Made by a program: the position numbers and the translations under genes. Shown piece by piece: positions 6,233-50,923 of a stretch of 64,000 nt of DNA; within the stretch, counting starts at the first letter, position 1, and every line of letters begins with the position of its first letter. The notes beneath the pieces are model-generated. The model saw only the letters and a program-made list of their open reading frames with translations, had not been told where the DNA came from and did no database searches. The stretch is from Bacilli bacterium. GTDB taxonomy: Bacteria; Bacillota_I; Bacilli_A; RFN20; CAG-826. The DNA is taken from positions 192,001 through 256,000 of the forward strand of contig JAZLKX010000025.1 in assembly GCA_045597865.1 (NCBI GenBank), read 5' to 3'.

Positions 6233-6269
6233 ACGTAAATTTTAACTGAAAATTTTATAAAATCAAATA

Positions 6270-6298: not shown

Positions 6299-6334
6299 AA
6301 TTACAATATTGTAATAGGACAAGAGAGAATAATT

Positions 6335-8101
6335 ATGAAAAACAGAAAAACCAGATTTTCGATTATTGCATGTTCTGCATTAGCGTTTTTTGCCGTTTTG
6401 CCATTATCAAGCTGCGGCTCATCATTTGATTCATACGCTTCTGTAAGACTTGAATTTTCAGAGAAACAAATGTCTTTAGGTGAATCTTTAGCCTTAAAAG
6501 CTTCAGTCACCAAAGGATTTGAAGGAGACATTCGTTGGTTCTCATCCAATGAAGGTGTTGTCTACATCAAAGACGGATATGCATTCGCTGTCGGTCTTGG
6601 CACCGCTAAAGTTACAGCAGCATTTGCTGGTGGCTATGCCGATGCAACAATTACCGTTGTAGAAGGCGAAGGCGGAGATGTTACAGGAGATCGTTTATCG
6701 ATTTCTCCAAAGACAAAAACTGTTTCTCCAAGTGGTTCTTTCAAAATTGCATGTTCAATTTCTCCAGCAGATGCAACTGTAACATTCGCTTCTGGTAACG
6801 AAGCTGTTGCAACTGTTGATGCTCAAGGCAATGTTACTGCTGTTGCAGCTGGTACTACAAATATTACTGTTACAGGTAGCAATGGCAAAGTTGCTATTTG
6901 TGTTGTCACTGTTTCAGAAGGCGGTGGTGGAGACGATCCATCAGGTCGTGATATCGCTGTCGATACAAATCTTAACTATTCAGGTGTTTCAATTAGAGTT
7001 GGTGCTCCTAAGAACCAAGTTGCTTGGATGAACTCAATTTTAGGTGAATTCAACTCCTTAACACATTCATCAATTTCATTTACAGTTTCTGAATTCGAAG
7101 AAGGAGATGGTGTTTCTAACCTTCCAACTGCTGAATCAGCTCCAGATATCTTCCCATATGCTTCTGACCAAACATTAAGCTTCTATCAATTAGGTGCTTT
7201 ATCAAATGTTTCACGTAGTGATGCAAACTGGATTAAAGAAACAATGGGTCAAGATGCATACGATGCAGCAAGACTTCAAAACGTTGTTGGTATTCCATTT
7301 ACATCTGATAACGGTGCTGTCATGTTCTATGATAAGTCAGTCGTTTCAGATCCAAGTCAAATTGATACTCTCGATGAATTATTTGATTTAGCTGATGAAA
7401 AGGACTTAGAAGTCAACATTGCTTATGGTAATGGTTTCTATTGTGCTCCAATTCTTCAAACTTATGGTAGTGGAACTTCACTATACTCATTAACTCCAAC
7501 AGATCGTGCTTATAATGCAACATCAACATTCGCAAGTGATGCTGGTTTACAAGGTGCAAAACTCCTCAAACGTCTTATTGACGAACCATCAATTAGAAAC
7601 GTTTCAACAGTTCCAGGAAAGAATGACGTTCTTGCCACAATCGTTGATGTTTCTAAGGTTGCTTCATTCAAGAATGAAATGGGCGATAAATATGCAACAG
7701 CACCTCTTCCATTTGTTAGTGAAGGTGGACCAAGACTTGGCTCATATCTAGGTTACAAGTTCTATGGTGTTAATAACACCCTTTCAGCCGCAAACAAAAC
7801 AATCGCATTCAATGTTGCAAAATTCTTAGCAAGTGAATACGTTCAAGCAAAGAGATTTGATTCATACATGGCTAAACCAACCAATATTGATTTGGCTGAA
7901 TACGCAATGAGTGAATCTCATATTCAATCTTTGACAGAACAATCAAAGAATAACGGAACAATCTTACTTACAGCTTGTGGTCTTGAACTTTGGTCCGAAA
8001 CTGCAACTGCAACTCAAAGTATTAAAGCTTTACCTGCTAATGCAAGTGATAATGACTTCATGGAGATTTTGAGAGTCTTAGACGGTGCTCTTGAAAGATA
8101 G
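6335..8101 (+). CDS. malE: Maltodextrin ABC substrate-binding lipoprotein with two N-terminal Ig-like (Big_2) domains
   Basis: Lipobox LSSC; two W/F.SS/GN..V..V..G.V.AV..GT..IT repeats; then a sugar-binding-protein region (APDIFPYASDQ, MFYDKS, GYKFYGVN). Lies directly upstream of malFG/malK. Confidence 0.75.
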   Translation: MKNRKTRFSIIACSALAFFAVLPLSSCGSSFDSYASVRLEFSEKQMSLGESLALKASVTKGFEGDIRWFSSNEGVVYIKDGYAFAVGLGTAKVTAAFAGGYADATITVVEGEGGDVTGDRLSISPKTKTVSPSGSFKIACSISPADATVTFASGNEAVATVDAQGNVTAVAAGTTNITVTGSNGKVAICVVTVSEGGGGDDPSGRDIAVDTNLNYSGVSIRVGAPKNQVAWMNSILGEFNSLTHSSISFTVSEFEEGDGVSNLPTAESAPDIFPYASDQTLSFYQLGALSNVSRSDANWIKETMGQDAYDAARLQNVVGIPFTSDNGAVMFYDKSVVSDPSQIDTLDELFDLADEKDLEVNIAYGNGFYCAPILQTYGSGTSLYSLTPTDRAYNATSTFASDAGLQGAKLLKRLIDEPSIRNVSTVPGKNDVLATIVDVSKVASFKNEMGDKYATAPLPFVSEGGPRLGSYLGYKFYGVNNTLSAANKTIAFNVAKFLASEYVQAKRFDSYMAKPTNIDLAEYAMSESHIQSLTEQSKNNGTILLTACGLELWSETATATQSIKALPANASDNDFMEILRVLDGALER

Positions 8102-8106
8102 TATTT

Positions 8107-9630
8107 ATGACTTCGATAAAATATTTATCACTTACAAAAGGACAAAGATTCATAGTCAATGTTGGCTCATTCTTTAAAGGAATAGGCCGTGGCTTTTTGA
8201 ACTTCTTTAAAGGAATTCCTTTTAAGTTCATTAAATTAGGCCACAAATTAATTAAACCATTCGAAGTTTTAGCAGATGCCTGGAAGAAAGGCACTTGGAT
8301 GGTTAGAGGAAACTTCTTAGTTTTCGGTTTATATCAATTATTCCATAACCAAATTATGAGAGGCGTTTTGTACTTAATGTACGAAGTAGTCTTTATTTGG
8401 TTTATGATTAAACTTGGTGGACCTTACCTAGGTAAATTAGGTTCACTTGGTACATTCTCACCAACTTCAATGTATCTAGCGGATGCATACGAAGGAGTAA
8501 CTGTCACCCTTCCAGGAGATAGATCATTTACAATCCTTCTTTATTCCATTGTTACATTCATTTTAATGGGTATTTTCGTAGCTCTTTGGTATTTCTCTAT
8601 CAGAGATGCAAGAAGCTTACAAAATAGCTATGCAGTTGGAAAATATGAGAAAAACGGTCAATTCTTCAAAGATATTCTTGATAAGAATTACCACACATTA
8701 CTTTTAGCAGTTCCACTTGTTGGTCTTGTTGGTTTTACAGTTATTCCTGTTATTTTCATGATTATTACAGGTTTTACCAACTATTCTGGAACTCAATTCT
8801 ATTTATTTGACTGGGTTGGATTTGATAACTATTCCAATCTTTTCTCAGGTATGGGCGCTAGTAGTGGAGGAACTGGTTTAGTTACCATCTTCTTTAAAGT
8901 ATTAGCTTGGACCCTTATGTGGGCTCTTATTGCAACATTTACCAACTACTTCTTAGGTATGGTTGTTGCATTACTTATTAATAAAAAAGGAATTAAATTA
9001 AAGAAATTATGGAGAACAGTCTTAATTCTCACAATTGCTGTTCCTCAATTCGTTTCCTTACTTTTGATTTCTCAAATGTTCTCAGGATCAGGTTTCTTAA
9101 CCAAGTTATTTGAACAAATTGGTTGGATTGCTCACGATACACTTCCATTTGATAACGCTCTACTGAGTAGAATCATCATTATTATCGTTAACATGTGGGT
9201 TGGTGTTCCTTACACAATGCTTATTTGTTCTGGCTTATTAATGAACATTCCAGAAGACTTATATGAATCTGCAAGAATTGATGGTGCTACACCATTCAAG
9301 ATGTTTAGCGCAATTACTCTTCCATATATGCTCTTTATTACAGGACCATACTTACTTTCACAATTTGTCGGAAATATTAATAACTTCAACATTATTTACC
9401 TCCTTTCTCAAGGTAAACCATCATTTGGCTTATCAAGCTTAGGCTATGGTGATGTTGGTGAAACCGACTTACTTATTACATGGATTTATAAGATGTCAAT
9501 GGAAGGACAAGATAAGAACTATGCTGTAGCATGTGTTTTAGGTGTTCTTGTCTTTATTATCATTGCCTTCTTCTCACTTATCTTCTATGGAAGATCTAAT
9601 TCAGTTAAAAACGAGGGGGATTTCCAATAA
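8107..9630 (+). CDS. malF: Maltodextrin ABC permease (MalF/MalC-like)
   Basis: Multiple TM helices; EAA loop LYESARIDGA; TIAVPQFVSLL; ETDLLITWIYK. Confidence 0.88.
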   Translation: MTSIKYLSLTKGQRFIVNVGSFFKGIGRGFLNFFKGIPFKFIKLGHKLIKPFEVLADAWKKGTWMVRGNFLVFGLYQLFHNQIMRGVLYLMYEVVFIWFMIKLGGPYLGKLGSLGTFSPTSMYLADAYEGVTVTLPGDRSFTILLYSIVTFILMGIFVALWYFSIRDARSLQNSYAVGKYEKNGQFFKDILDKNYHTLLLAVPLVGLVGFTVIPVIFMIITGFTNYSGTQFYLFDWVGFDNYSNLFSGMGASSGGTGLVTIFFKVLAWTLMWALIATFTNYFLGMVVALLINKKGIKLKKLWRTVLILTIAVPQFVSLLLISQMFSGSGFLTKLFEQIGWIAHDTLPFDNALLSRIIIIIVNMWVGVPYTMLICSGLLMNIPEDLYESARIDGATPFKMFSAITLPYMLFITGPYLLSQFVGNINNFNIIYLLSQGKPSFGLSSLGYGDVGETDLLITWIYKMSMEGQDKNYAVACVLGVLVFIIIAFFSLIFYGRSNSVKNEGDFQ

Positions 9631-9631
9631 T

Positions 9632-10495
9632 ATGGCACAAGAAAAACATTTTGCTAGTAAAAGATTTGCGGAAAAAAGCCAAAGAGTTTTAGTTTACGTT
9701 GCCCTTTCTCTTATTTCCCTCATTTGGGTTTTCCCATTCTTCTATTTAATCTTCCAAAGCTTTGGTAAGTTCGCATCAGGTGGTATTTTCCCAGCACCAG
9801 GTGAATGGACATTCCAAAACTACGTAAACTTATTTACATTACCTGAAACACCATTCTTAAGATGGTGGCTAAATACATTCATTATTGCTGTATTTACTTC
9901 ATTGCTTCAAACAGCTCTTGTCTTAATGACATCTTATGCATTAAGTAGACTCCGTTTCAATGGTAGACAAGCTTTAATGAAATTAATTCTTATTTTAGGA
10001 ATGTTCCCAGGATTCTTAGGAATGCTTGTTATTTATTACATTCTTGAACTTCTTGGAATGAACACTTCTATTTTCTCACTTATTTTAGTCTATACAGCTT
10101 CCTCAGCAATGAGTTATTACGTTGCTAAAGGATTCTTTGATACTATTCCAATGGCGCTTGATGAAGCTGTTATGATTGATGGTGGAACAAAGAACACAGT
10201 TTTCTGGAAAGTTATTCTTCCACTTTCAAAACCAATTATTATTTACACAATCCTTGTTTCCTTCACGGGACCATGGGGTGACTTTATGTTTGGCAAATAC
10301 ATTACTCAAACAGCAGGTATGCTCCCAGATGGTTATACTGTCGCAGTTGGATTACAAGGTTTAACAGCAAACTCTGATTACTATGGCACATTCTGTGCTG
10401 GTGCAGTGCTTGTTTCAATACCAATTACAGCATTATTTTTCTGGTTACAACGTTATTACGTTGAAGGTATTGCTGGTGGTGCTGTCAAAGGCTAA
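9632..10495 (+). CDS. malG: Maltodextrin ABC permease (MalG/MalD-like)
   Basis: Likely ATG at 9632 just after the malF stop; YALSRLRF.GR, KGFFDTIP..LDEAVMIDG, C-terminal GAVKG. Confidence 0.88.
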   Translation: MAQEKHFASKRFAEKSQRVLVYVALSLISLIWVFPFFYLIFQSFGKFASGGIFPAPGEWTFQNYVNLFTLPETPFLRWWLNTFIIAVFTSLLQTALVLMTSYALSRLRFNGRQALMKLILILGMFPGFLGMLVIYYILELLGMNTSIFSLILVYTASSAMSYYVAKGFFDTIPMALDEAVMIDGGTKNTVFWKVILPLSKPIIIYTILVSFTGPWGDFMFGKYITQTAGMLPDGYTVAVGLQGLTANSDYYGTFCAGAVLVSIPITALFFWLQRYYVEGIAGGAVKG

Positions 10496-10509
10496 TAGGA
10501 GGAAGACAT

Positions 10510-13068
10510 ATGGCTTCGTTAAAATTAGAACATATTTACAAGGTTTATCCAAACGGACACAAAGCTGTCTCTGATTTCAACATGGATATTAAAGACGGTG
10601 AATTCATCGTTTTCGTTGGACCTTCAGGTTGTGGTAAATCTACAACATTACGTATGATTGCAGGCCTTGAAGAAATCACTTCAGGTGAATTATATATCGG
10701 CGACACAATCGTCAACGATATGCAACCAAAAGATCGTGATATCGCCATGGTTTTCCAAAACTATGCTCTTTATCCTCATATGACAGTTTATGAAAATATG
10801 GCTTTCGGACTTACACTTCGTAAAGTTCCAAGAACCGAAATCCACGAAAAAGTTATGTGGGCAGCAGATGCTCTTGGCTTAAAAGAATACTTAGATAGAA
10901 AACCAAAAGCTATGTCTGGTGGTCAAAGACAACGTGTTTCTTTAGGTAGAGCTATTTTACGTAATCCTAAAGTTATGCTTCTTGACGAACCTCTTTCTAA
11001 CTTAGATGCCAAGTTAAGAAGCCAAATGAGATCTGTCATTGGTAAACTTCATCAACAATTAAAAACTACATTTATTTACGTTACACACGACCAAGTCGAA
11101 GCTATGACTCTTGGTACAAGAGTCGTTGTTATGAAACTTGGTAAAGTTCAACAAATTGATACTCCACAAAATCTTTATGATCACCCAATCAATAAATTCG
11201 TTGCAGGATTTATTGGTACTCCACAAATGAACTTCTTTAATGTCACTTTAAAACAAGAAGCAAAGGGTGTTGATGTTGCTTGGAGTGATGTTGATACACA
11301 ACCTCATCTTAAATTATCACTTGATCAAGTTCTTAAAGCAGAAAAGAAATTCCTCCAAGGAAACAAGAAAGTTATTCTTGGCTTCAGATGTGAAGCTATT
11401 TCTGTTGAAGAAAAAGACCTTGCAAAAGGAGATAATATCGTTGATGTTATTATTTCTCACTTTGAAGAACTTGGTAATGAAACTCTTATTTATGGTGACT
11501 TAAAACAAATTGAAGGTCTTGGTGAAGAATCTAAGACTCCAGTTATTATCAAAGCCTCTTCAAAGAAAGACTTCAAACCTGGTGATAAGATTAAAGCAAG
11601 AATTGATGTTAACAAGATTCACTTATTTGACTATGAATCAGAAATGACAATTCTTCCAGCAATTCCAGAATATTCAGTCTTACCAGTTGATATTGTCGAT
11701 GGAAATATGACTTTATTTGGAAAGATTAAAAAACCAAATGATATTCCAGTTGACTTTGTCAAAGATGGCACAATTTCCTTACCACTTTCCGCAATTATGG
11801 TTGGTGAAGGTGAAAATGTTGCCGCAATTGACTTAATTGAACAACACGGTGATAAATATCTTGCTAGAGTAAAAGCAGGGGAACACAAATTCTTCTGTTT
11901 TGTCGATGAAAAAGCAAAAGTTGGTGGCAAAATCAAATTTGCAGTCGATTATTCTAAAGCAACATTCCGTGATAAAGACGAAAAGATTATTGCTTATCCA
12001 CTTGCAGAAAGAGATGACTTACAAGCTACATTTGTTAACTTGAAGACAGCTTTCGAAGTTACAAATAATCAAGAATTCATGGATCTACAAGCAAAACGTG
12101 TTAAAGAAGTAGAAGAAAAGTATGCTTCTTTAGAAGCAGATTTTGCTAAAGAACGTGAAGCTGCCATAAAAGAAGCTGAAGAAAAGCAAAAAGCAGCAGC
12201 ATCTACATTAGACACCGATAGAGCAAAACTCGATCAAGAAAACCTTAAACTTAAGGCTCAAATCGAAGAACTCAATAAGAACTATCGTGTTGAAATTAAA
12301 CAGTTAAAAGAAAAACATAAAGCAATTCGTAAAGAAGAACTCGAAAAGATTGCTGTTATGTATAAAAACATGTGGGAAAACGAAAAGAAAGATTTCGCTA
12401 AATCCATGGAAGCAAATAAAGATCCAGAATCTCGTAGAAGTAGAAGAATGAGCTACAGAGTTTTCAAAGAAAACTTCCCTCAAATGAGACAAAATGATAT
12501 CGAAAGAAAAGAGGGAGCATTAGATCTAGATAAAGAAACTGATTTTGGTGCAGCAGACTCAAGATTCTCTCAACAACTACATTTATTAAAGGAAACTATT
12601 TCTGAAAATAAAGCAAATTACGAAAATGAACATTTCCCAGTAAATAAAGTTGAAAAAGAATTTGCTCTAAAAGAGAAACAACTTAACAACAAGAAAAAAG
12701 AAGATCTTCTCAAGGCTCAACTTATTTTCTTCTTTAAGTTTGGCGATCATTATGAATTAATTGCAGATAACATTACTACAAAGATTATCCAAGGCTTAGG
12801 CAACAAAGTATTCACAAAAGTATTTAAAGTTGCAATGCCACATGATGGCTTTGTCGAAGACAAAGACGGCTTACCATTTGAAGTCGTTCAAGAAGTTAAC
12901 TTTGGTGATGTTAAGATGTATAAGTGCGCAGGTGAACTTTATGGTGAAAAAGTTTACGTATACATTATGAAGGAAAGAGAAATTGAAAGAGGAGAACATA
13001 TCACTCTTAAACCACTTATTGAAAAGAGTGAAATTTATGAATCTGAATTCAATATCAGACTCTATTAA
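10510..13068 (+). CDS. malK: Sugar ABC ATPase (MalK/MsmX) with a ~470 aa C-terminal extension
   Basis: GGAGG RBS; Walker A GPSGCGKST, VFQNYALYPHM, MSGGQRQR, LLDEPLSNLD, VTHDQ; TOBE domain; then extra OB-like and K/E-rich segments. Confidence 0.9.
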   Translation: MASLKLEHIYKVYPNGHKAVSDFNMDIKDGEFIVFVGPSGCGKSTTLRMIAGLEEITSGELYIGDTIVNDMQPKDRDIAMVFQNYALYPHMTVYENMAFGLTLRKVPRTEIHEKVMWAADALGLKEYLDRKPKAMSGGQRQRVSLGRAILRNPKVMLLDEPLSNLDAKLRSQMRSVIGKLHQQLKTTFIYVTHDQVEAMTLGTRVVVMKLGKVQQIDTPQNLYDHPINKFVAGFIGTPQMNFFNVTLKQEAKGVDVAWSDVDTQPHLKLSLDQVLKAEKKFLQGNKKVILGFRCEAISVEEKDLAKGDNIVDVIISHFEELGNETLIYGDLKQIEGLGEESKTPVIIKASSKKDFKPGDKIKARIDVNKIHLFDYESEMTILPAIPEYSVLPVDIVDGNMTLFGKIKKPNDIPVDFVKDGTISLPLSAIMVGEGENVAAIDLIEQHGDKYLARVKAGEHKFFCFVDEKAKVGGKIKFAVDYSKATFRDKDEKIIAYPLAERDDLQATFVNLKTAFEVTNNQEFMDLQAKRVKEVEEKYASLEADFAKEREAAIKEAEEKQKAAASTLDTDRAKLDQENLKLKAQIEELNKNYRVEIKQLKEKHKAIRKEELEKIAVMYKNMWENEKKDFAKSMEANKDPESRRSRRMSYRVFKENFPQMRQNDIERKEGALDLDKETDFGAADSRFSQQLHLLKETISENKANYENEHFPVNKVEKEFALKEKQLNNKKKEDLLKAQLIFFFKFGDHYELIADNITTKIIQGLGNKVFTKVFKVAMPHDGFVEDKDGLPFEVVQEVNFGDVKMYKCAGELYGEKVYVYIMKEREIERGEHITLKPLIEKSEIYESEFNIRLY

Positions 13069-13070
13069 TT

Positions 13071-13859
13071 ATGAACAATAAAAAGATACTTTCATTATTA
13101 ACACTTCCTTTACTTTTAGCATCTTGTGCTAAAAATGCTTCTTTTGAGCAAATTAAGGAGAAGATTGATAATATTTCATCGAATGCTTTGTATCCTTATT
13201 ATCGTGTCGCAGGTTTCCTTGATTTCAATAACGAAGTATTAGAAATCGATTCAGTATTTGATAAAACACCAAGCCCTGATTCTTTCGTTCCTTACGCACG
13301 TTATAACGATGGATTTTATTGTCCAGATGCATCAACTGCGGAAAAGGCATTAGGCAAGGAAAATACAGTAATTTATGGCATGTCTTCAAGATCATACTTT
13401 TTACGTGCTCCACTTAGATTACATAAAAATAATTTTTATGTAGTTGGTGAAGACGGCAAAGAAAATATGACTTGTGGCCATTATATTATTGAACATATTA
13501 TTACCTCTTATGCTGGTGCAGATGGCGCTATTAATCCAAGTAGTAATAAGATGAAATTTGAGCTATTAAACGATGGCGGATTTGCCTTCGTTGGAGAAGC
13601 ATCACACACTACATTTAGAGTGGATAATTACCCATATTATCCTGATGTAGCTACACACCCAGAAATAGGTGAGTGGGCTAGTGATATTCCGCTCCCATGT
13701 TTTGAGAATCAAATTAACGCAAAAGTTAATGTAAGATTTGAGTACAACAAGGATGGCTGGTTAACAAGAGAATTCTTAAAAACCACTGACTATAGTTATA
13801 GCAAAGCAACTGCATCGCAGATCTCACTTGAAACAGTATATTCCTATAGATTTGAGTAA
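13071..13859 (+). CDS. Hypothetical lipoprotein
   Basis: Lipobox LLASC; starts 2 nt after the malK stop. Confidence 0.8.
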   Translation: MNNKKILSLLTLPLLLASCAKNASFEQIKEKIDNISSNALYPYYRVAGFLDFNNEVLEIDSVFDKTPSPDSFVPYARYNDGFYCPDASTAEKALGKENTVIYGMSSRSYFLRAPLRLHKNNFYVVGEDGKENMTCGHYIIEHIITSYAGADGAINPSSNKMKFELLNDGGFAFVGEASHTTFRVDNYPYYPDVATHPEIGEWASDIPLPCFENQINAKVNVRFEYNKDGWLTREFLKTTDYSYSKATASQISLETVYSYRFE

Positions 13860-13860
13860 T

Positions 13861-14538
13861 ATGAAACTTAAGTATTTGTTATTGTCTATTTCGGCAATGT
13901 CATTACTAAGTTCATGTGGACAAAATGAATTAAGAAGTGACATAAAAGAATTTGTCGCTTCTTTTTCTTTAACCGAATCAATGGAGCTATATAAGCACGC
14001 TGGTTATACGAGTATAAAAGAATCACTTATTAATGGCGTAAAAACTAGCGAAACTACAACATTAAATTTTGATATTTCTGATCTTGAAAATATTTCGTAT
14101 GACTTTAAAGTAGTTACAAAAATTAATGACGGAAATGAAGAAATAAAAGAAAAATTAATAACAAAAGTTGAAGAAAAATATTTTTTAAATGAAACTGAAA
14201 AAGAGCCTGTTGAATACACTGTAGACAACATAAAATTACTTATTCAAGATTTCTTTTTTACCAAAACAATGTATGAAGGAACTTACCATTCTAATGGTAT
14301 GTATTATGGTGATCTAATTTTAGAGACAGCGCGAGATTTGCAAGGATTCATCGAAATAAATCAAGAAAATCAACTTTATATTTTCTATCACAAAACTCAA
14401 GGAAAAGTTGATGGAAAAGACTCAATGGTCGAACAATATTACTCAGTCAATAAGCATGGAATGCTTGTTAAAAATATATCCAATCAAGTCAACGGTGAAA
14501 ATTACATTAATCAAGAAATTAATGTTTTTGTTTTTTAA
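13861..14538 (+). CDS. Hypothetical lipoprotein
   Basis: Likely ATG at 13861 (MKLKYLLL...LLSSC lipobox), directly after the previous stop. Confidence 0.78.
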   Translation: MKLKYLLLSISAMSLLSSCGQNELRSDIKEFVASFSLTESMELYKHAGYTSIKESLINGVKTSETTTLNFDISDLENISYDFKVVTKINDGNEEIKEKLITKVEEKYFLNETEKEPVEYTVDNIKLLIQDFFFTKTMYEGTYHSNGMYYGDLILETARDLQGFIEINQENQLYIFYHKTQGKVDGKDSMVEQYYSVNKHGMLVKNISNQVNGENYINQEINVFVF

Positions 14539-14552
14539 TTGCTTCAACTTTG

Positions 14553-14581
14553 TTGACTAAAAATACAAAAAGAACTAAAAT
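14553..14581 (+). promoter_or_regulatory. SigA-type promoter of the amylase/pullulanase genes
   Basis: TTGACT-17 bp-TAAAAT, upstream of an AAGGAG RBS. Confidence 0.6.
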
Positions 14582-14618
14582 AATAGCTGAATATTAACCT
14601 AAGGTTAAGGAGACTATT

Positions 14619-17942: not shown

Positions 17943-17955
17943 GGAGGGAACGAAA

Positions 17956-18783: not shown

Positions 18784-18797
18784 TTGGAGGAAAATTT

Positions 18798-21980: not shown

Positions 21981-21990
21981 GGGGGAAAAA

Positions 21991-22767: not shown

Positions 22768-25700
22768 AAAAAGGTTTAAAATTATTCTCTCTTTTATTAG
22801 GTAGCAGCATCCTTTTATCTGGATGTGATCAGTTTACTTCTGATTGGCCTAATCAATTACCATCTCCAGAAGAAATGGGTATCGACACTCCTTGGAGTGA
22901 TTATTCAAACCCATGTTCTTCAATTACATTTGGTAAAGGCGATGCAAATGTAAATTTAAATAAGGGCGAAACACACACATACTCATATAGTGTTGAACCA
23001 AGAGATTTTGACACCTCATCACTTGTATGGGCATCAGATAATCCAGAAGTTGCCACCATTGAAAATGGTGTTTTAACAGCAGTTGGTGGTGGTAAAGCCA
23101 ACATTACCTTATCTTGTGGAGAAGTAGCAGCACGTTCACTTGTAACTGTTACAGTCCCAATTACCGAATTTAATGTATTAAATAAAGAAATTTCATTAGA
23201 TATTGAAGGTACTTCACAAATTAACTATGAATTTGCTCCTGAAGACACAACCCAAAACGCAGTTCAATATTCAACTGAATCCGACATCATTACTGTTTCA
23301 GATTCTGGTTTAATTACAGCTTTAGGCGTTGCAGGAGATGCTGAAGTTAAAGTTACTAATGAAGGTTTAAATAAAGTTGAAATTGTTAATGTCCATGTTT
23401 CTGATAACTGGAATTACATTTCGACCATGACTCTTTCTGGACCAAGTAAGTTAGAAGTTACTAAATCCAGCAATTTAACATGTAATGCTGTTGGTGTTGA
23501 TCCATCTAGAGAAGCTTCAGCACTTAGCAATAATAGCGTTGTTTACTCAGTTAAAGAAGGAAGCGAAGAATTCATTTCAGTTGATCCTGAAACAGGCGCT
23601 ATTACTGGTCTTGAACCAGGAACTGCAACTTTAGTTGCAAAACTTGTTGATGATAGACATCCTGAAGCTCTTTCTGAAGAAGCTTTAGAAGAGAAAACAT
23701 TCACAAGCGAATTTGCTGTTGAAGTATTTGAAGTTTCAATTGTCAGTCTTGATTTAACTGATTCTGAAACTATTGAACTTGATAATGCTGAAAATATTTC
23801 TCATCAATTATCTTATACATTCACTTTAAGTGATCCATCATTTGAAGAAGCTTCAAGAGCAAATATTGCTTATACTTCAAGCGACTTAGAAGTTGCTACA
23901 GTAAGCGAGAGTGGTCTTGTTGAAACTGTTGGTCCTGGCACTGCAACAATTACAGTTAAAGACTTAACCAGCAACGTTTCTGATTCAATTGATGTACATA
24001 CAACAATTTATGCAAAATCCATTACCTTAAATAGTAGTGGAGATTTCTATTTAGATGAATCTATTGAAATTAGCGCAAACGTTGTTCCAGCAAAGACAAC
24101 TGATTCAGTTGTTTGGGATTACGATGAAGCTTCAGGACACACATTTGTTGAGCAAGATAACAAACTTATTGTTACTTGTAACAATCTTGATTCTTCAGTA
24201 GATGTTAAAGCTAGTGTTGGAGGAGTTACATCTAACACCTTAACTTTAACTCCAAAAGAAAGAGAAGTTGCCTTTGAAAGCGGCAAAACTTACATCGTTG
24301 GTTCATCTAACTTCAAGACCGGTGTTTCAAAGGATGTTGAAGGCGGTTCTTGGAATGCTGCTAAATACGCATTTGTTATGACTGATAAGACAGGCAATGC
24401 ACATGCTAAGTATGAATACAAAGCAACAATTGAATTTAGAGAAAATGACGAATGGAAGATTCGTGAAAACGTTGAAGACTGGAGAGCAATCAGTTCTTCA
24501 AACGGTTTATATAAAGTAACCGAAGGTGCATTTGCTAAAGGTCAAATGAGCGTTAGCGGTACACCAGAAGAAGGCAATGTATTAGTTAATGTAGCTGGTA
24601 AATATGATGTTTATTATGCTTACTATGATGATACTGAAACAGGTTGGTATGAAGTTTATGTTGAAGAACATGGTATGAAGTTATCTTCAACTGATGTTCA
24701 CGCTAAATTAACTTCTCCAGTAACAGTTTCAACTATCAGCGTTGATAATTATGATGGAACAGTAGTTCTTGATGAAGTTGATGATGAATATATTTCCGCT
24801 TCATTTGATGCATTAACAAGCAAGATCTCAATTACTCCAGTTAAAGTTGGCAAAACTTCATTTAAAGTTCGCGATGACTATAAAGAAATTTTAGTTAATG
24901 TTGAAATTAAAGAAGGTTCTGATGCAAAACCAACTACTTACTATATTCGTGGTGATGCAGCAAATGGCTGGGGCATTGATGAAAGTTATGTCTTAAGAGA
25001 ATCAGCTGATGATAACAATTATGGTGAAATTTTAGATTTATATCTAAAAGCTGGTAGTTTCAAGATTGCTGATGAGAATTGGTCTGGTGGCACTGTTTGG
25101 GGCTATGAATATGATGGCCACACAACCATAACTGGTGGTGCTGCAGCTAACTTCACAGCAGGTGACAGCGATAATAATATTAAGTGTAATGTTGCAGGTT
25201 ACTATGACATTTACTTAACCAAAAATAATTATATTTCGATTGAAAATGCTGGCGTTGAACCAGTTCCATTTATGTGGGGTATTGCTGGTAGTGGAACAGG
25301 ATGGAAACTTGATACAGATCATCCATTTGTTGAAACAACATCAGAAGGCGATGCTATATACACCTACAAGTTAAATAACTTCGAATTTGCAAAAGATGCA
25401 ACATGGAAAGTTACAAATACAAAAGATGAATGGATTGCTAATAAATTAGGTGTTGGTTTTGATTTATCAAAATCAACAGCAGGTGCATTTGAAATCGATA
25501 AAGATGGAAACATTAAGGTTTTAACTGCCGGAACATATGACATTACCTTAAATATTTGGAATTTCGAATATGATGGTAAAGATGTCGTTGCTGGTGCACA
25601 AATCTATGCTGTAGCTCATGAAGCTCCAGCAGGACCATCAATTTCATTTGGCATTGCTAATCCAGAAGTTGCTGTTAATGGGACATTAGAAATTCCAGTA

Positions 25701-27695
25701 ACTGCCACAAATTGTAGTGGACTTACTTATTCTATTACTGAAGGTAATGAATATATCACACTTGATTTATTAAATAGTAACGATACAAAACTTATTGTTA
25801 ACGGCACTGAATACGAAGGAACTTCAACTGTTAAGGCAGCTGCAAGTGATGGTACAGAAGCAACTATTCAAATTGTTTGTAGCGAGTCTCCAACTCCAGT
25901 AGGAGATAAAGATTACATTGTAAAAGTTTGCCACGACGAAGTTTGGTCACAATTAGATATGAGCCAAACAGTAGGTGATGAATCACAATATGAATATACA
26001 GGTGATTTTGATAAAGATGATATCTTTGTAATTCATATGTATGGTGAAACCTGGTATCACTTTGAAGATGTCAAAGAAGGATGCCTCTCGCTTGTTTCCT
26101 TACAAGGAAGTGAAGACATTAAGTTTAATGCAGCAGGAAATTACACAATTTATGCTGATTACGATGCAGACGAAAAAGGTGATCATATTTGGATTAAGAA
26201 GAATGTTGCACCAGCCACAATGACCATTGAAGGCTCTGATCCAGTTACAATGTCTGTTCATGAAGGCGTTTCAGGTGAATTCATGTTATTAGATGTTTCT
26301 TTAGAAACAAATGAATTCTTCTCATTTGAATATGATGGAATTACTGTTGGATACAATGATTTGAAGGATGATTCTCCTGCAGGTGTTACTAGTAACACCG
26401 CAAAACACATTGCAGTTACAACAGCTGGTTCATACGACATCTATTTTGATACCGCTAAGATTGGCAGTGGATGCTTATACATCGCAGAGCACAAAGCAGT
26501 AACACCTGATTATGTTGCACATGCTTGTGTTGGTGGTTCCTGGATTGATATTCCAATGGAAAAAGATGATGAAGATCAGTATGTATTTACATATGATTTC
26601 TCTGAAGGTGATAGTTTCAAACTTCACTTAACAGGCGATGATTGGCGCGGATACGATAACTTAGAAGACGGATGCGCCTCATTAGTTAGCGTTGATCCAT
26701 TAGATAAAGATAAAAACATTTTAGTTACTGAAACTGCAAGATACACAGTTTATGCTAAACCAACAGATGGTAAAAATGTTTGGATTAACAAAGCTCCAGT
26801 TCCAGTAACAGGAGATTTCTCCGTTACAATTAATGGAACAAGCCACGATTTAACTTTGAATGAAAAGTCTGGTGAATATTATCTGGATAATATTGATTTA
26901 TCCCGTGACGATTTATTAGAGTTCTATAATGGCGATCAAAAATTAACAGTTTCAGCTAAAGTTGCTCCAGAAGGAAGTGCAAATAACTGCTTCCTTAATA
27001 GTTCTAACAAAATTGAACTTATTAGAGCTTTAGCTGCAAAAGAAGGCGAAGGAATTTATTTTGATCCAGTTAACAATACCGTTTGGGTTAATGGTAACCA
27101 TGAATCCTATAGCGTTGTTTGTAATGGTGAAGAATATGATCTTGAAGCACATGGTAGTGGTGATGGATATAAAGAATTCTCATTCACACTTGCAGAAGTT
27201 AGCGATGGCGATCAATTAGTCTTCAACAAGAATGGTTTAGTTGTTGATGCTGGCCCAGAAACTGGTACAGGCAACAACGCAACAGCCGATGATTATAAAG
27301 GCAATACTTTTTGTAAAGTTACAAAAGGTGGCGAGAACTTATCTGTTTACTTTAAAGTCTATGCAGATAGATATGAAGTTTGGGTTGGCGAGGCCAAAGG
27401 CGATGTAGTTACAGTTACATTTACCATTAATTATGGTACTGAAAGTGGCCAAGGCGTCTACATTGTCGGTGATTTCTGTGGTTGGGATCCAACTAAAGGT
27501 ATTAGAGGAACTTGGACAGAAGGCAACAACTGGGTATTTACAATAGAAATGCCTGTTGATACCGTTTGGTCATTCAAGTTCGTAATTAATAGTTATGATA
27601 ATCCAACTGATCCTGCTATAAGATGGGAAGAGAATCCAAATAGATCTTATACTTTCTTAGCAGATGGTTCAGAAACATTTGTTTGGCAAGCATAG
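22764..27695 (+). CDS. 1643-aa non-catalytic lipoprotein: Big_2 array, SusE/F-like repeats, C-terminal CBM20
   Basis: ATGA overlap with the upstream gene; lipobox LSGC; several Ig-like repeats; repeated YY.G...W...FKI...AG.YDIY units; C-terminal VTFTINYGT..GQGVYIVG...W...W..GNNW...FKFV...RWEENPNR. No GH13 catalytic motifs seen. Confidence 0.8.
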   Translation: MKKGLKLFSLLLGSSILLSGCDQFTSDWPNQLPSPEEMGIDTPWSDYSNPCSSITFGKGDANVNLNKGETHTYSYSVEPRDFDTSSLVWASDNPEVATIENGVLTAVGGGKANITLSCGEVAARSLVTVTVPITEFNVLNKEISLDIEGTSQINYEFAPEDTTQNAVQYSTESDIITVSDSGLITALGVAGDAEVKVTNEGLNKVEIVNVHVSDNWNYISTMTLSGPSKLEVTKSSNLTCNAVGVDPSREASALSNNSVVYSVKEGSEEFISVDPETGAITGLEPGTATLVAKLVDDRHPEALSEEALEEKTFTSEFAVEVFEVSIVSLDLTDSETIELDNAENISHQLSYTFTLSDPSFEEASRANIAYTSSDLEVATVSESGLVETVGPGTATITVKDLTSNVSDSIDVHTTIYAKSITLNSSGDFYLDESIEISANVVPAKTTDSVVWDYDEASGHTFVEQDNKLIVTCNNLDSSVDVKASVGGVTSNTLTLTPKEREVAFESGKTYIVGSSNFKTGVSKDVEGGSWNAAKYAFVMTDKTGNAHAKYEYKATIEFRENDEWKIRENVEDWRAISSSNGLYKVTEGAFAKGQMSVSGTPEEGNVLVNVAGKYDVYYAYYDDTETGWYEVYVEEHGMKLSSTDVHAKLTSPVTVSTISVDNYDGTVVLDEVDDEYISASFDALTSKISITPVKVGKTSFKVRDDYKEILVNVEIKEGSDAKPTTYYIRGDAANGWGIDESYVLRESADDNNYGEILDLYLKAGSFKIADENWSGGTVWGYEYDGHTTITGGAAANFTAGDSDNNIKCNVAGYYDIYLTKNNYISIENAGVEPVPFMWGIAGSGTGWKLDTDHPFVETTSEGDAIYTYKLNNFEFAKDATWKVTNTKDEWIANKLGVGFDLSKSTAGAFEIDKDGNIKVLTAGTYDITLNIWNFEYDGKDVVAGAQIYAVAHEAPAGPSISFGIANPEVAVNGTLEIPVTATNCSGLTYSITEGNEYITLDLLNSNDTKLIVNGTEYEGTSTVKAAASDGTEATIQIVCSESPTPVGDKDYIVKVCHDEVWSQLDMSQTVGDESQYEYTGDFDKDDIFVIHMYGETWYHFEDVKEGCLSLVSLQGSEDIKFNAAGNYTIYADYDADEKGDHIWIKKNVAPATMTIEGSDPVTMSVHEGVSGEFMLLDVSLETNEFFSFEYDGITVGYNDLKDDSPAGVTSNTAKHIAVTTAGSYDIYFDTAKIGSGCLYIAEHKAVTPDYVAHACVGGSWIDIPMEKDDEDQYVFTYDFSEGDSFKLHLTGDDWRGYDNLEDGCASLVSVDPLDKDKNILVTETARYTVYAKPTDGKNVWINKAPVPVTGDFSVTINGTSHDLTLNEKSGEYYLDNIDLSRDDLLEFYNGDQKLTVSAKVAPEGSANNCFLNSSNKIELIRALAAKEGEGIYFDPVNNTVWVNGNHESYSVVCNGEEYDLEAHGSGDGYKEFSFTLAEVSDGDQLVFNKNGLVVDAGPETGTGNNATADDYKGNTFCKVTKGGENLSVYFKVYADRYEVWVGEAKGDVVTVTFTINYGTESGQGVYIVGDFCGWDPTKGIRGTWTEGNNWVFTIEMPVDTVWSFKFVINSYDNPTDPAIRWEENPNRSYTFLADGSETFVWQA

Positions 27696-27714
27696 TAGAT
27701 TGTAATAACTCAAT

Positions 27715-27747
27715 AAAGCGCGACCTCAAAAATCGCGCTTTTATTTT
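27715..27747 (+). terminator. Intrinsic terminator
   Basis: AAAGCGCGA / TCGCGCTTT followed by TATTTT. Confidence 0.8.
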
Positions 27748-27860
27748 GCTTAATAAGTTATGTAATAGTTGATATCAACTATTAATAGAATATATTCATT
27801 ATTGTAATAATATTTTCATGTGTTATAATAAGATTAATCTTAAGGAGAAAAATTTTAATT

Positions 27861-28319
27861 ATGAGAAAATCAAAAATTGCAATTCTTGCATTAGCACCAG
27901 CTCTTCTTTGTGGTTGTGCTATGAAATGTGATTTTGCCAAATTCCAAGAAAAGGTTGGCGCAATTGATAGAAAAGGCGTTACAGCAACCAAAATTGTTAT
28001 CTCTGGCAAATTAACAATCGGTGATAAGGAAGAAGATATCAACTATGATAGCTCAACAGCTTCTTTATTAGATCTTGTTTCACCAAATGCAATTGCAGCA
28101 GCAGTTATGGCATTAAATAATGTCAACTTCTATGCTGTCACAGAAGACGCAAATTCAACATATTACGCTGGAACAACATTCAAAGTGACAAACGATGTCT
28201 TAAAAATTGAATGGAACAAATATGGTGATTGCACAAAAGCAAACGGAAAGCTTGATGACGGAAAAGGATCAAACTACACCGTTAACTTAAGTGCAAAATA
28301 TACATACGAAACAAAATAA
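27861..28319 (+). CDS. Small hypothetical lipoprotein
   Basis: AAGGAG RBS; lipobox LCGC; upstream TG.TATAAT. Confidence 0.8.
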   Translation: MRKSKIAILALAPALLCGCAMKCDFAKFQEKVGAIDRKGVTATKIVISGKLTIGDKEEDINYDSSTASLLDLVSPNAIAAAVMALNNVNFYAVTEDANSTYYAGTTFKVTNDVLKIEWNKYGDCTKANGKLDDGKGSNYTVNLSAKYTYETK

Positions 28320-28329
28320 TTGTTAAATT

Positions 28330-28353
28330 AGACGGATTTTATCCGTCTTTTTT
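28330..28353 (+). terminator. Intrinsic terminator
   Basis: AGACGGAT-TTT-ATCCGTCT followed by a T run. Confidence 0.75.
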
Positions 28354-28374
28354 ATAAAAAAAGGAGAAAACTTA

Positions 28375-31074
28375 ATGAAAAAGATTAAAATCTTATCATT
28401 CGCTAGCTTACCACTTGCAATGGCTTTATTAGCAGGTTGTGGTCACACTCACACATTCTCTGAAGAGTGGAATCACAATGAAGAGAAACACTGGCATGAT
28501 GCAACTTGTGAACATAAAGATCAAATAAGTGAAGAGGGCGAACACAACTTTGGCGATGACAATGTTTGTGATGTTTGTGGTTACGAAAAAGGCGAAGAAC
28601 CAGGCCCAGGCCCAACACCTCATGAACATACATTCTCTGATGATTGGACTCATGACGATGAAAAGCACTGGCATGCAGCTACTTGCGAACACACCGATCA
28701 AAAGAGCGGTGAAGCCGAACACGTTTATGGTGATGACAACATCTGTGATGTTTGTGGTTATGACAAAGGCGAAGGACCAGGACCAACTATTGATCCACAT
28801 AAAGTAGATGAAACTGGATGGAAAGCTGCATTTGGTGCGGACGAACATTTGTTTATGTTCGCAGACAACTATAAGGCCACAATGACAATGAGTGGTGCTA
28901 TGTCTGGCGAAATGATTCTTGAAGTTGATGGCAATAAACTCAAAAATAATCAAGGCGGCACAGTCTTTTATTATTCTTTAGAAGATGGAGCTGCATATTG
29001 TTACTCAAATTTAGCGGGCAGTTGGTCTAGAAGTCCAATTGGTGATGCAAATAATCTAAAAGCAATTGTTTCTACCTATTTTGAACCATTTGGAGATTTT
29101 AGCGCTTTTGCATATGATGAAGAAAGTCATGCATATAAAGCTGCGTCAGCAATTGGAGGAATGGCAACAAATTTAGTTGCATCATTTACTGATGGCAAAG
29201 TTATGTCAGTATCTTATGATTCAGTTAATCCTGAAGACACAACACAAGTTGCACATCTTGCATCTACATTTGTTTATGGCGGACAAACAGTTACTCTTCC
29301 AGAAGTAGAACCAGCTCACGAGCACGTTTTCGATACACAATGTAGTGATCAATACAATCACTGGAATGAATGTGAATGTGGTGCAGTTGATCAAGATTCA
29401 ATAGAAGCACACTATGATGTTGAACCAGAAGATGGATTCTGCGATGTTTGCGGATGCGAAATGGAAGATTCACCAATTCCAGAACTTCCAATGTATTCAC
29501 TTCTAGTTGGTGGTGAATCATTAAGCATGATTTACAATTCTGACTTAGAACAATATGAATATTGTGAGCTCCCAGTTGAAGTTGATGATGAAATTACTGT
29601 AATGAACGTTACACCAGGCGCGGAAGGCGCTTTAACATCACTCAGCATTGGCGATGATGCTCATGGTTTTACGGTCACAGATGGTGTTTTAAAAGCTACT
29701 GTAGCTGGAACTTATTCATTCTATTTAAAACCATCATGGGGAAACGATACAATTTACATTGCTGAAAGCACATCTCCACTTCCAAGCGAACCGGTTTATG
29801 GTTACAAAATTAATGATGGCGAATACATCGTAATGGATTTAGATGGCAAAGATAAATCTGCTCAATGGATTGCAATTGGTGTTGATGTCGAAGAAGGTCA
29901 AACAGTGACATTTGCAAACATCACTCCTGATACTCCAGAAACTATGCCAGGACTCTTCATTGGCGGAACAACACAAGGTTTCACCATCCTGGATGGTGTC
30001 TTAACTGCAGATCATACTGGAAATTATAATTTCTACTTACAACCAGAATTTGAAAATGATGTTGTTTACATTGCAGAAAACTCAGTTGTTGACTGTAGAT
30101 TAATGGGTATGGATGGTGACTGGGAAGGTGGAATTTTGATGAGTCCAGTTTCAGAAGGAAGTACCGAATTTGTCGCCCAAAATCTCGATATTGAACCAGG
30201 CGATAAAGTTAAAGTTAAATTTGAAGATAGTTGGATTAGCGATTTTAAACGAAATACTGGTACCGCAAATGCACTTGATGAAAATTTAGCTGAAATTGAT
30301 GGTGAAGGTAATGTTCAATTCAATTTCGCTGGTGTCTACACAATTTACTTTGAAAGCAACACCGAAGGTGCATATGGCGTCTTTGTTAGAAGAGAATCAG
30401 TTAGTTGCCCATATATTGGCTCTGCCGATATAACAACTCCATCTGGTGATATCCATCAAGATGCTACATTTTTCTTCCACAAAGTTGATTTAGCTAATAA
30501 TTTCATTGAATATTATTTATCCAACTGCCCAGGATACAACGGAATGTCATACACCATCAAAGATGGTGATACTCCAGTAACTGATTTTGATCTTGAAGAA
30601 GGCGGCGAAGCAGCAAACTTTACAAAAGTAGGTTCAACAATTACCTATCATGGTGAAGCTGAAGCATTGAATTTCTATCTAAAAGAAGATTTAACCGAAC
30701 ATACATTAAAAGTTTATGTTGAAGCATATATTGATCCAGCTCAATACAGCACTCTTTATTTAGAACCAGGTGTTTGGGCTAATGATGGTGCAACATTCTA
30801 TGCTTTCTTCTTTGATTCAACATCTGGAAAAGAAGCTGTTTGGGTTGCTTTAATTGAAGAAGATGGTTTATACAAAGTTGAAAAAGTTGATGGTTATGAC
30901 AAAGTCATCTTTGTAAGATGTGATCCTGCAAAAGATCCATTAGTTGATGGTTGGGATGCAAAATGGAATCAAACACAAGATTTAGATGTTCCAACAGATT
31001 CTTGTGTTAAATGTTCTATTACAGGCTGGGGAGAAGATAAACAACCATCTCCATCAACTTGGCAAGTGAAATAA
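28375..31074 (+). CDS. Lipoprotein with His/Cys-rich repeats, SusE/F-like repeats and a C-terminal CBM26-like module
   Basis: AAGGAG RBS; lipobox LAGC; H.H.FS..W.H..EKHWH.ATCEH...CDVCGY repeats; G.Y.FYL.P repeats; C-terminal WANDGA.F...IFVRC.P...WNQTQDL. Confidence 0.75.
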   Translation: MKKIKILSFASLPLAMALLAGCGHTHTFSEEWNHNEEKHWHDATCEHKDQISEEGEHNFGDDNVCDVCGYEKGEEPGPGPTPHEHTFSDDWTHDDEKHWHAATCEHTDQKSGEAEHVYGDDNICDVCGYDKGEGPGPTIDPHKVDETGWKAAFGADEHLFMFADNYKATMTMSGAMSGEMILEVDGNKLKNNQGGTVFYYSLEDGAAYCYSNLAGSWSRSPIGDANNLKAIVSTYFEPFGDFSAFAYDEESHAYKAASAIGGMATNLVASFTDGKVMSVSYDSVNPEDTTQVAHLASTFVYGGQTVTLPEVEPAHEHVFDTQCSDQYNHWNECECGAVDQDSIEAHYDVEPEDGFCDVCGCEMEDSPIPELPMYSLLVGGESLSMIYNSDLEQYEYCELPVEVDDEITVMNVTPGAEGALTSLSIGDDAHGFTVTDGVLKATVAGTYSFYLKPSWGNDTIYIAESTSPLPSEPVYGYKINDGEYIVMDLDGKDKSAQWIAIGVDVEEGQTVTFANITPDTPETMPGLFIGGTTQGFTILDGVLTADHTGNYNFYLQPEFENDVVYIAENSVVDCRLMGMDGDWEGGILMSPVSEGSTEFVAQNLDIEPGDKVKVKFEDSWISDFKRNTGTANALDENLAEIDGEGNVQFNFAGVYTIYFESNTEGAYGVFVRRESVSCPYIGSADITTPSGDIHQDATFFFHKVDLANNFIEYYLSNCPGYNGMSYTIKDGDTPVTDFDLEEGGEAANFTKVGSTITYHGEAEALNFYLKEDLTEHTLKVYVEAYIDPAQYSTLYLEPGVWANDGATFYAFFFDSTSGKEAVWVALIEEDGLYKVEKVDGYDKVIFVRCDPAKDPLVDGWDAKWNQTQDLDVPTDSCVKCSITGWGEDKQPSPSTWQVK
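28444..28797 (+). repeat. Intragenic tandem duplication, 177-nt (59-aa) period
   Basis: Copies start at 28444 and 28621 and share ACATTCTCTGA, CACTGGCATG and TGTGATGTTTGTGGTTA. A degenerate third copy lies at about 29317-29457. Confidence 0.85.
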
Positions 31075-50922: not shown

Positions 50923-50923
50923 T

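Follow-up and report, generated by a model that had tools for sequence, protein, structure and literature searches.

A conserved, apparently undescribed operon for the probable harvesting of starch in a predicted wall-less member of the Bacilli

Gene content and layout of the locus

The DNA analyzed here, referred to as the window, is a stretch of 64,000 nucleotides from an uncultured member of the Bacilli (GTDB lineage Bacillota_I; Bacilli_A; RFN20; CAG-826; assembly GCA_045597865.1, contig JAZLKX010000025.1, positions 192,001 to 256,000). Calling of open reading frames (ORFs) in the window placed 13 ORFs, all on the + strand, at 6335-31074, which is the number of co-oriented genes given in an earlier note made from the sequence alone. 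The first eleven form a block that is conserved as an operon and encodes a solute-binding protein (SBP), two ATP-binding cassette (ABC) permeases, a MalK-type ATPase, an amylase, a pullulanase, and five non-catalytic lipoproteins. With a rough probability of 0.7, this block is an operon for the utilization of an α-glucan, most likely dietary starch, in a wall-less, reduced-genome bacterium of the herbivore gut, which would bind, cut, and import the polymer by way of lipoproteins. Such a conserved starch-harvesting operon is apparently undescribed so far.

The first eleven genes overlap or are separated by gaps of at most 14 nt, with the exception of 80 nt before the amylase gene. A promoter-like site (TTGATT-17-TATAAT, 6270-6298, + strand) lies ahead of the operon and an internal one (TTGACT-17-TAAAAT, 14553-14581, + strand) lies in the 80-nt gap; both are consensus matches alone. 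The eleventh gene is followed by an intrinsic-terminator-like element at 27718-27747 on the + strand, made of a hairpin (27718-27738) with a 6-bp GC stem and a 9-nt loop, and an adjoining T-run. This hairpin was read directly by eye; the automated scan did not pick it up because of its 9-nt loop. Beyond it lie the last two genes, encoding LP152 and LP899, with gaps of 165 nt before the former and 55 nt before the latter. We place the end of the conserved system at 27747 because these two genes are absent from related loci, lie behind the terminator, and have a promoter-like site of their own.

The operon opens with the transporter genes. The SBP (6335-8101; 588 aa) has a lipobox, an N-terminal Big_2 stalk, and an SBP_bac_8 domain in Pfam, and the Big_2-SBP family comprises 171 clusters (E <= 1e-10), nearly all of 580-610 aa. 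Both permeases (8107-9630, 507 aa, and 9632-10495, 287 aa) match BPD_transp_1, and their best NCBIfam matches are MalF and MalG, respectively. The ATPase, MalK852 (10510-13068), is of the MalK/UgpC type in Pfam and NCBIfam (458 bits for the UgpC subfamily, above the cut-off of 432) and carries a 470-aa C-terminal extension. Its normal nucleotide-binding domain and OB/TOBE domain are followed by a β-domain (residues 385-505), a coiled-coil-like stretch (505-735), and another β-domain (735-852). The coiled-coil-like stretch of about 230 residues consists to 57% of K/E/R/D/Q/A and to 2% of P+G, and it includes a conserved basic motif. The extension was found in 91 clusters (90% identity), nearly all of 848-853 aa and with 44-100% identity, and in one further, distant member of 850 aa (29% identity); no name or described function was found for it. 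SBP_bac_8, two BPD_transp_1 domains, ABC_tran, and OB_MalK are together the features of a CUT1-type MalEFGK2 importer, for which the assignment of the ligand is contextual. The Pfam scan of the products of 981-31517 returned no regulator family, and the sole LacI-family match of the genome lies at position 30739 of the same contig (C25:30739), about 167 kb from the locus.

Two small lipoproteins follow the transporter. LP262 (13071-13859) is a conserved lipoprotein of an unnamed family, for which the model suggests a weak LolA/LppX-like fold resemblance, and LP225 (13861-14538) is a conserved lipoprotein without known family that is always paired with LP262. Across 16 LP262 sequences, 53 columns are invariant. 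The family is small, with 46 matches at E <= 0.001 and 11 at E <= 1e-30 among 1.84 billion representatives; all eight distant members that were inspected are lipoproteins of 200-240 aa, and Pfam gave no informative family for 22 distant relatives. Searches of PDB sequences with the LP262 and LP225 profiles gave nothing below E 0.3, and no family was found for LP225 in Pfam, NCBIfam, or PDB-sequence searches. The LP262 model (pLDDT 66, pTM 0.71) had no match at E <= 0.001 in the PDB with Foldseek. With a wide aligner, it gave Z-scores of 4-5.1, below the noise level of that tool, and about 20 of the 50 top rows were chains of the LolA, LolB, LppX, LprF, or LprG type. The Atlas clusters of LP225 are hypothetical proteins, the nearest named ones being LppX_LprAFG and DUF6612 at 0.83, a lead below 0.9. 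Comparison of the two profiles with each other aligned the first 50 residues alone, signal peptide included. Prediction of a complex of LP262 (residues 20-262) and LP225 (residues 21-225) from paired 16-row alignments returned a score of 0.01 (mark 0.32), a "no answer" that speaks neither for nor against an association.

The enzymes are related to well-known ones. AMY1107 (14619-17942) is a lipoprotein with three Big_2 domains, a PUD/CBM41 domain (26.6 bits against a cut-off of 25), and the catalytic domain of a GH13 α-amylase (PF00128, E 1e-74), the catalytic segments of which align to 1wza (Halothermothrix AmyA). In the PDB-sequence search, SusG chains were among its best solved relatives (E 1.5e-45). 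PUL1060 (18798-21980) is a lipoprotein type I pullulanase by Pfam, NCBIfam, and PDB-sequence search, with a CBM48 domain and a weak PUD match, and its nearest solved relatives are type I pullulanases and Amy12 and Amy10 of Ruminococcus bromii. These matches bear out the α-1,4 amylase and the α-1,6 pullulanase named in the earlier note. The enzymes are ordinary relatives of these, and the transporter is ordinary as well apart from its oversized ATPase.

Among the other three lipoproteins of the operon, at least two have modules of a starch-binding type, one of them by predicted fold. LP275 (17956-18783) has, by predicted fold, an InlB-B-repeat-like module (residues 54-150) that a Gly-rich linker joins to a CBM20-like β-sandwich (156-266). 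Its model was built from an 8-row alignment and has a pLDDT of 68 overall and of about 85 in the C-domain. The best superposition of residues 156-266 was on the CBM20 of Bacillus cereus β-amylase (Z 7.3, root-mean-square deviation 2.6 Å over 87 residues), followed by a glucoamylase CBM20 (Z 6.8), by the CBM41/CBM26 domains of Thermotoga PulA and Eubacterium rectale Amy13K (Z 5.3-5.5), and by generic Ig/Fab rows (Z <=5.2); residues 54-150 superpose on the InlB B-repeat with Z 5.9. We regard the C-domain as a lead for a starch-binding, CBM20-like module. In keeping with this, the same module also occurs inside giant proteins matching LP1643 in genomes of a second genus, here called g11. Profiles of the two LP275 modules run against all ORFs of the window's own genome matched LP275 itself alone, and modules of the same kind could not be demonstrated in LP1643 or LP899. 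LP258 (21991-22767) has, by Pfam, a Big_2 domain, a Pro-rich linker, and a C-terminal module without family. LP1643 (22764-27695) is a giant non-catalytic lipoprotein in which Pfam recognizes N-terminal Big_2 domains and a C-terminal CBM20 (residues 1549-1637), separated by about 1000 aa without family. A permissive Pfam scan (E up to 5) of the LP1643 middle, LP899, and the LP258 C-terminus gave no match to CBM25, CBM26, or SusE/F, nor any other that was credible. Thus, the proposal of three non-catalytic proteins with CBM20/CBM26/SusE-F-like modules held in part: a CBM20 is present in LP1643 and a CBM20-like fold is predicted in LP275, while CBM26 and SusE/F went unmatched.

The last two genes are set apart from the operon. 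LP152 (27861-28319), a small lipoprotein, is encoded between a promoter-like site (27802-27829) and a terminator (28330-28348) of its own. LP899 (28375-31074) is a large lipoprotein, for which Pfam gives no family over its whole length. Straight after its lipobox (28375-28900) are three Cys/His-rich repeats of about 50 aa with the pattern H..W..C.H....H....CD.CG, and this repeat has no Pfam family either. At least five more large lipoproteins in this genome, among them G000:C25:87504-90254 and 171479-174274, resemble LP899 at the N-terminus. LP152 and LP899 were in none of the related loci examined. They are probably not part of the starch system because they are unconserved and because the LP899 N-terminus belongs to a multi-copy lipoprotein family. 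Having their own promoter and terminators as well, the two were rejected as members. The earlier note had placed a terminator before these genes, which agrees with the hairpin and T-run, and had suggested that they may be regulated separately; the membership in the system that it had given them was not upheld.

Conservation of the operon in related genomes

The taxonomic order was searched with LP275, and about 34 kb was fetched around each of eight matches. Five of the eight relatives, from the window's genus and g11, keep the same 11-gene order at 27-93% identity: Big_2-SBP, MalF, MalG, MalK852, LP262, LP225, amylase, LP275, pullulanase, LP258, and a giant Big_2/CBM protein. In these five, the eleventh product is a giant Big_2 protein, and its match is to the N-terminal portion of LP1643. 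Two more have looser amylase-LP275-pullulanase sets, one of them beside a normal-sized MalK, and the eighth has a distant amylase match only.

A scan with the LP262 profile, run on one genome per species and independent of the LP275 search, found 15 loci. The full 11-gene order was present in 12, two were cut by contig ends, and the last had the transporter, LP262, and LP225 only. LP262 follows MalK852 directly in 15/15 loci. Strong LP262 matches were confined to 12 of the 301 genomes sampled from the order; they occurred in 8 of 8 genomes of g11 and in 3 of 16 of the window's genus, plus the genome of the window itself. The related loci come from metagenome-assembled genomes (MAGs) of uncultured bacteria from rumen, goat reticulum, and horse faeces. 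The earlier note had named a lack of conservation of the accessory lipoproteins with the enzymes as grounds to give up its proposal; the lipoproteins from LP262 to LP1643 keep a fixed order with the enzymes in two genera, LP152 and LP899 excepted.

The locus that lacks the enzyme genes is from a horse-faeces MAG (L036:3213-11424) and consists of Big_2-SBP, MalF, MalG, the long MalK, LP262, and LP225 alone, followed by housekeeping genes. The two proteins come straight after MalK852 in all 15 loci, even where the enzymes are missing, and our best guess is therefore that LP262 and LP225 would be accessories of the transporter module and not of the enzyme module.

Surface anchoring in a predicted wall-less cell

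All ten starts for which the earlier note had reported a lipobox give a signal peptide that ends in one. Eight of the ten fit a strict G+LPP-type regular expression; the other two, those of the amylase (..CMCAC) and LP152 (..LLCGC), fall outside it through a Cys at -2. By the same measure, 79 of 1449 non-overlapping ORFs of at least 100 aa in the genome have a lipobox, and against this background the binomial probability of at least eight among 13 ORFs is 7.8e-8. Among orthologues with a full N-terminus, a lipobox is present in 13/13 for the SBP, 15/15 each for LP262 and LP225, and 12/12 each for the amylase, LP275, LP258, and the LP1643-like proteins; in the amylase orthologues it is mostly a canonical L(G/T/S)AC. 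The lipobox of the window's PUL1060 is canonical. In eight pullulanase orthologues the motif is LPAC, with Pro at -2, and the signal region of the two nearest to PUL1060 (81-82% identical) lacks a Cys; the variable-anchor orthologues include L032:15750-18929 and L035:15668-18862. The orthologues without Cys may therefore be released or may be anchored by an uncleaved signal.

The window's genome (1.74 Mb in 58 contigs, 96.9% complete, 5.4% contamination) encodes two copies of Lgt and one of LspA by family searches. Whole-genome family searches gave no matches for sortase (PF04203), penicillin-binding protein (PBP) transpeptidase, Mur_ligase_M, or FtsW/RodA/SpoVE, and control genomes gave matches. 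Of 301 sampled genomes of the order, 59 had PBPs; within the window's family the count was 6 of 164, and none turned up in the 16 genomes of the window's genus or the 8 of g11. As far as the excerpted text of a survey goes, most genomes of the gut "Tenericutes" lineage RFN20 lack mraY and murG (PMC7301438), in line with these counts. The lineage is predicted to have no peptidoglycan wall, since wall-gene families are absent from this genome and PBPs are rare or absent in the family, the genus, and g11. Nothing can be wall-anchored in a wall-less cell and, therefore, lipid anchoring is the default.

The other features of the locus also extend to the whole genome. About 79 ORFs with a lipobox are spread over it, many of more than 1000 aa and often arrayed, and lipobox density was rejected as a sign of a special secretion or assembly pathway because it is genome-wide. 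Big_2 domains were confirmed on the binding protein, the amylase, and two accessory proteins (SBP, AMY1107, LP258, and LP1643), as the earlier note had reported; domains like those of the SBP are on at least ten other large surface proteins of the same genome. Since lipoboxes and Big_2 domains are both genome-wide, they are traits of the organism and not of the starch locus, and lipid anchors with Ig stalks are the general surface-display mode of this wall-less cell. The all-lipoprotein make-up without LPXTG follows, across the genome, from the lack of a cell wall and is not a locus-specific design, and "all lipoproteins, no LPXTG" should be read first as a marker of wall-less biology. This qualifies the idea of a distinct architecture: a conserved operon with dedicated non-catalytic lipoproteins is there, but the arrangement is largely an expected adaptation of a familiar scheme to the lack of a wall.

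Other surface proteins are encoded nearby. A 1194-aa surface protein (981-4565) has a signal peptide, contains Listeria-Bacteroides (Flg_new) repeats, and ends in a transmembrane anchor, a second, non-lipoprotein mode of surface anchoring in the wall-less cell. The permissive Pfam scan gave no CBM25, CBM26, SusE/F, or other credible match for it. In several related genomes, proteins akin to its C-terminal part are encoded close to the starch operon. Between it and the operon are genes for a HAD-family (Hydrolase_3) phosphatase (4981-5766) and, on the - strand, a small multi-pass membrane protein without known family (5759-6232). Downstream, giant surface proteins with similar Big_2 domains are encoded at 50909-54259 (about 1116 aa, with a lipobox) and 54417-59984 (about 1856 aa). 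Both belong to the genome-wide giant-lipoprotein set, another array of which is at G000:C25:72279-90257.

Proposed function and expression

In the function that we propose, the extracellular parts would be tethered to the single membrane by N-terminal lipid anchors, there being no peptidoglycan for anchoring. Starch would be held at the surface by the non-catalytic LP1643, through its C-terminal CBM20, and LP275, through a CBM20-like module on a B-repeat spacer. The SusG-related GH13 amylase is expected to cut α-1,4 bonds and the type I pullulanase α-1,6 bonds, both enzymes being kept off the membrane by Ig-like or CBM41-type modules. The lipid-anchored SBP, on its two-domain Big_2 stalk, would then pass maltodextrins to the MalFGK-type ABC importer. 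Breakdown could be completed in the cytoplasm by a phosphorylase, an amylomaltase, and GH13 enzymes, the genes of which lie on another part of the contig: GT35 phosphorylase, GH77 amylomaltase, and cytoplasmic GH13 genes are located at C25:57-64 kb.

Contigs that are consistent with expression were found in a horse-gut metatranscriptome. When window positions 6000-25999 are divided into 30 bins, 27 of them are covered at 90-99% identity by Logan contigs from this RNA library. Some of the contigs run across the pullulanase/LP258 and LP258/LP1643 junctions, which fits transcription in vivo.

Several points weigh against the proposed function or limit how firmly it can be held. Gene content, domain families, lipoboxes, conserved gene order, and the lack of wall and sortase genes are direct observations; the substrate, the binding, activity, and co-localization of the products, and the parts played by LP262, LP225, LP258, and the MalK extension are deduced from sequence and models. 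The permease scores (167.7 bits for MalF and 139 bits for MalG) are under the NCBIfam equivalog cut-offs, and the best named match of the SBP is a galacto-oligosaccharide binder at a weak 38.6 bits, so its ligand is deduced from context. The TIGR02104 type I match of PUL1060, at 436 bits, is under the cut-off of 504.5, and the pullulanase orthologues are not all lipoproteins (0/12 fit the lipobox regular expression, with eight LPAC and two without Cys). The LP275 model is mediocre at its pLDDT of 68, and the Z of 7.3 is within the tool's common range for unmatched models. No family was matched by LP262, by LP225, by the C-terminal half of LP258, or by about 1000 aa of LP1643. The genome in which wall genes are absent is a MAG in 58 contigs with 5.4% contamination. 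Finally, DNA carry-over in the horse-gut RNA library is possible, and two other metatranscriptomes (X12 and X14, about 2% of each) gave no reads, the presence of the organism there not being established.

Alternative explanations

The substrate could be another gut α-glucan, such as glycogen or amylopectin-like reserves from rumen protozoa and bacteria, or pullulan-like glucans. A GH13 amylase, a type I pullulanase, and CBM20/41/48 do not tell starch from glycogen, and the relatives are all rumen or hindgut MAGs, from sites where microbial α-glucans abound. CBM20 and very large multi-module binding proteins are, on the other hand, more typical of binders of granular or insoluble starch; this favors starch. 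The present data do not separate the two, and we regard another glucan as unlikely. A different question is whether the products form a stoichiometric, physically assembled surface machine, a membrane "amylosome" or monoderm Sus held together by Ig-like domains and the lipoproteins without family. Strict conservation of gene order and content over 27-93% identity and the tight spacing or overlap of the genes could be read in this way, as could the Big_2 stalks of four of the proteins (SBP, amylase, and two accessory ones); LP262 and LP225, having no enzymatic or CBM signature, leave room for a scaffold role. We consider such a machine unlikely. Conservation of an operon is what would be expected for co-regulated proteins that act independently, and two-dimensional confinement on one membrane would co-localize lipoproteins without specific contacts. 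No cohesin/dockerin-type or other known assembly modules are in the locus and no dockerin is in the genome. The earlier note had taken the recurring Big_2 domains as a hint of Ig-mediated assembly, but their presence on at least ten other surface proteins marks them as a generic stalk, and nothing so far supports the idea that Ig domains bring about physical assembly.

A further possible explanation concerns LP262 and LP225, which may serve the long-MalK importer, and not the starch-degrading layer, as LolA/LppX-like lipoproteins that might, for example, organize the membrane or act as further carriers of ligand when dextrins are long or helical (lipid-complexed). Their place right after MalK852, the transporter that stands with them alone in the horse-faeces MAG with no amylase or pullulanase nearby, and the internal promoter-like site that parts them from the enzyme half are all consistent with this, and the LolA/LppX-type rows for LP262 and the LppX_LprAFG neighbor of LP225 would fit it too. 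Those fold matches, though, are under the level at which the tools are meaningful (Z of about 5 compared to a typical best of 7-8, and an Atlas value below 0.9), the LP262 model has a pLDDT of just 66, the profiles found no solved structure, and the two profiles align only over a start that includes the signal peptide. The horse-faeces locus is also a single case, and the enzymes could sit elsewhere in that genome. We hold this role for the pair as tentative and rather doubtful. An extended version would be that the Ig-stalked SBP, LP262/LP225, and MalK852 form a new kind of ABC-importer module for wall-less cells, and that the whole 11-gene set is a physically organized membrane "amylosome" without cohesin-dockerin, SusC/D, or wall. 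In it, the LolA/LppX-like proteins outside would help to catch α-glucan chains that are long, helical, or complexed with lipid, or to pass them on, and the MalK coiled coil with two extra TOBE-like domains would array transporters or couple regulation, the latter being proposed because the locus encodes no regulator. Taken jointly, these suppositions are speculative and quite improbable. An α-glucan utilization operon, with starch as the most likely substrate and lipoproteins confined to one membrane, is the explanation that we prefer.

Comparison with known systems

No description of a starch system in wall-less Bacilli or Mollicutes was found in the full-text literature, a scope outside which subscription journals and supplements lie, and within it the earlier note's view of the system as undescribed stands. 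The excerpted text of a 2026 review of glycoside transporters (PMC13543919) contains none of the terms "Mycoplasm", "Mollicutes", or "coiled". Environmental Tenericutes have been noted to encode pulA in the part of the genome survey cited here (PMC7301438). Wall-less, reduced-genome Bacilli are common but uncultured in rumen and hindgut and their ecological role is poorly known; judging by this locus, two genera or more may be specialists in degrading starch at the surface. The LP262 and LP225 families and the strictly conserved extended MalK are uncharacterized targets for structural and biochemical work.

A lipid-anchored debranching enzyme near or together with a binding-protein-dependent maltodextrin importer is familiar from Klebsiella PulA and from the maltodextrin loci of Thermococcales and Thermotoga, and this locus resembles them in that respect. 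To our knowledge, those loci lack a conserved set of accessory lipoproteins, an Ig-stalked SBP, and an extended MalK.

E. rectale Amy13K and the Gram-positive polysaccharide utilization loci (gpPULs) offer a closer likeness, with a surface multi-CBM GH13 enzyme, a CUT1-type importer, a lipid-anchored SBP, and one membrane. The gpPUL, in the definition excerpted from its source, comprises polysaccharide-degrading enzyme(s), a system for carbohydrate transport, and a regulator of transcription (Sheridan et al. 2016; PMC5320581). Here, the enzymes (GH13 amylase and pullulanase) and the transport system are encoded in one locus, as in a gpPUL, and the regulator is not. In starch systems of the Amy13K kind, the enzymes are anchored to the wall through sortase and LPXTG, whereas those of this locus are lipid-anchored and no sortase is present; the C-termini of the translations show no LPXTG with a hydrophobic tail. 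Further differences are an SBP on an Ig stalk, a MalK of 852 aa, and five non-catalytic lipoproteins dedicated to the system.

The Bacteroides thetaiotaomicron SusCDEFG system, as far as the excerpts of the review describe it, shares a lipoprotein amylase near SusG, co-operonic non-catalytic starch-binding lipoproteins, and the logic of binding, cutting, and importing at the surface (PMC13543919). AMY1107 corresponds to a SusG-type surface lipoprotein GH13 amylase in that it has both a lipobox and SusG among its best solved relatives. In contrast to Sus, there is no outer membrane and no SusC or SusD here, and import would go straight through the ABC transporter; the Pfam scan of the 13 products and their neighbors found no TonB_dep_Rec, Plug, or SusD. 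The accessory proteins appear to be of other families, with no SusE/F match at E up to 5 in the segments scanned and with CBM20-type modules in LP275 and LP1643 instead. The R. bromii amylosome, in the portions of its descriptions that were drawn on (PMC9112005; bioRxiv 10.1101/2022.11.20.514607), is similar in having Amy12 and Amy10, the kin of the pullulanase, and non-catalytic starch-binding proteins such as Sas. It differs in its assembly: Dockerin_1 had no match across the window's genome, cohesin had none among the locus products, to which that search was limited, and lipid anchors are found instead. The absence of SusC/D, dockerin, and LPXTG reported in the earlier note therefore agrees with the scans of the cluster and extends, for dockerin and sortase, to the genome. 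We conclude that this is most likely a starch locus of the Gram-positive type in a form suited to life without a wall, which would work like Sus and gpPULs and is a member of no known class. It would be the answer of a cell bounded by a bilayer only to the problem of binding, cutting, and importing starch, a problem that Bacteroides meets with Sus and Ruminococcus with amylosomes.

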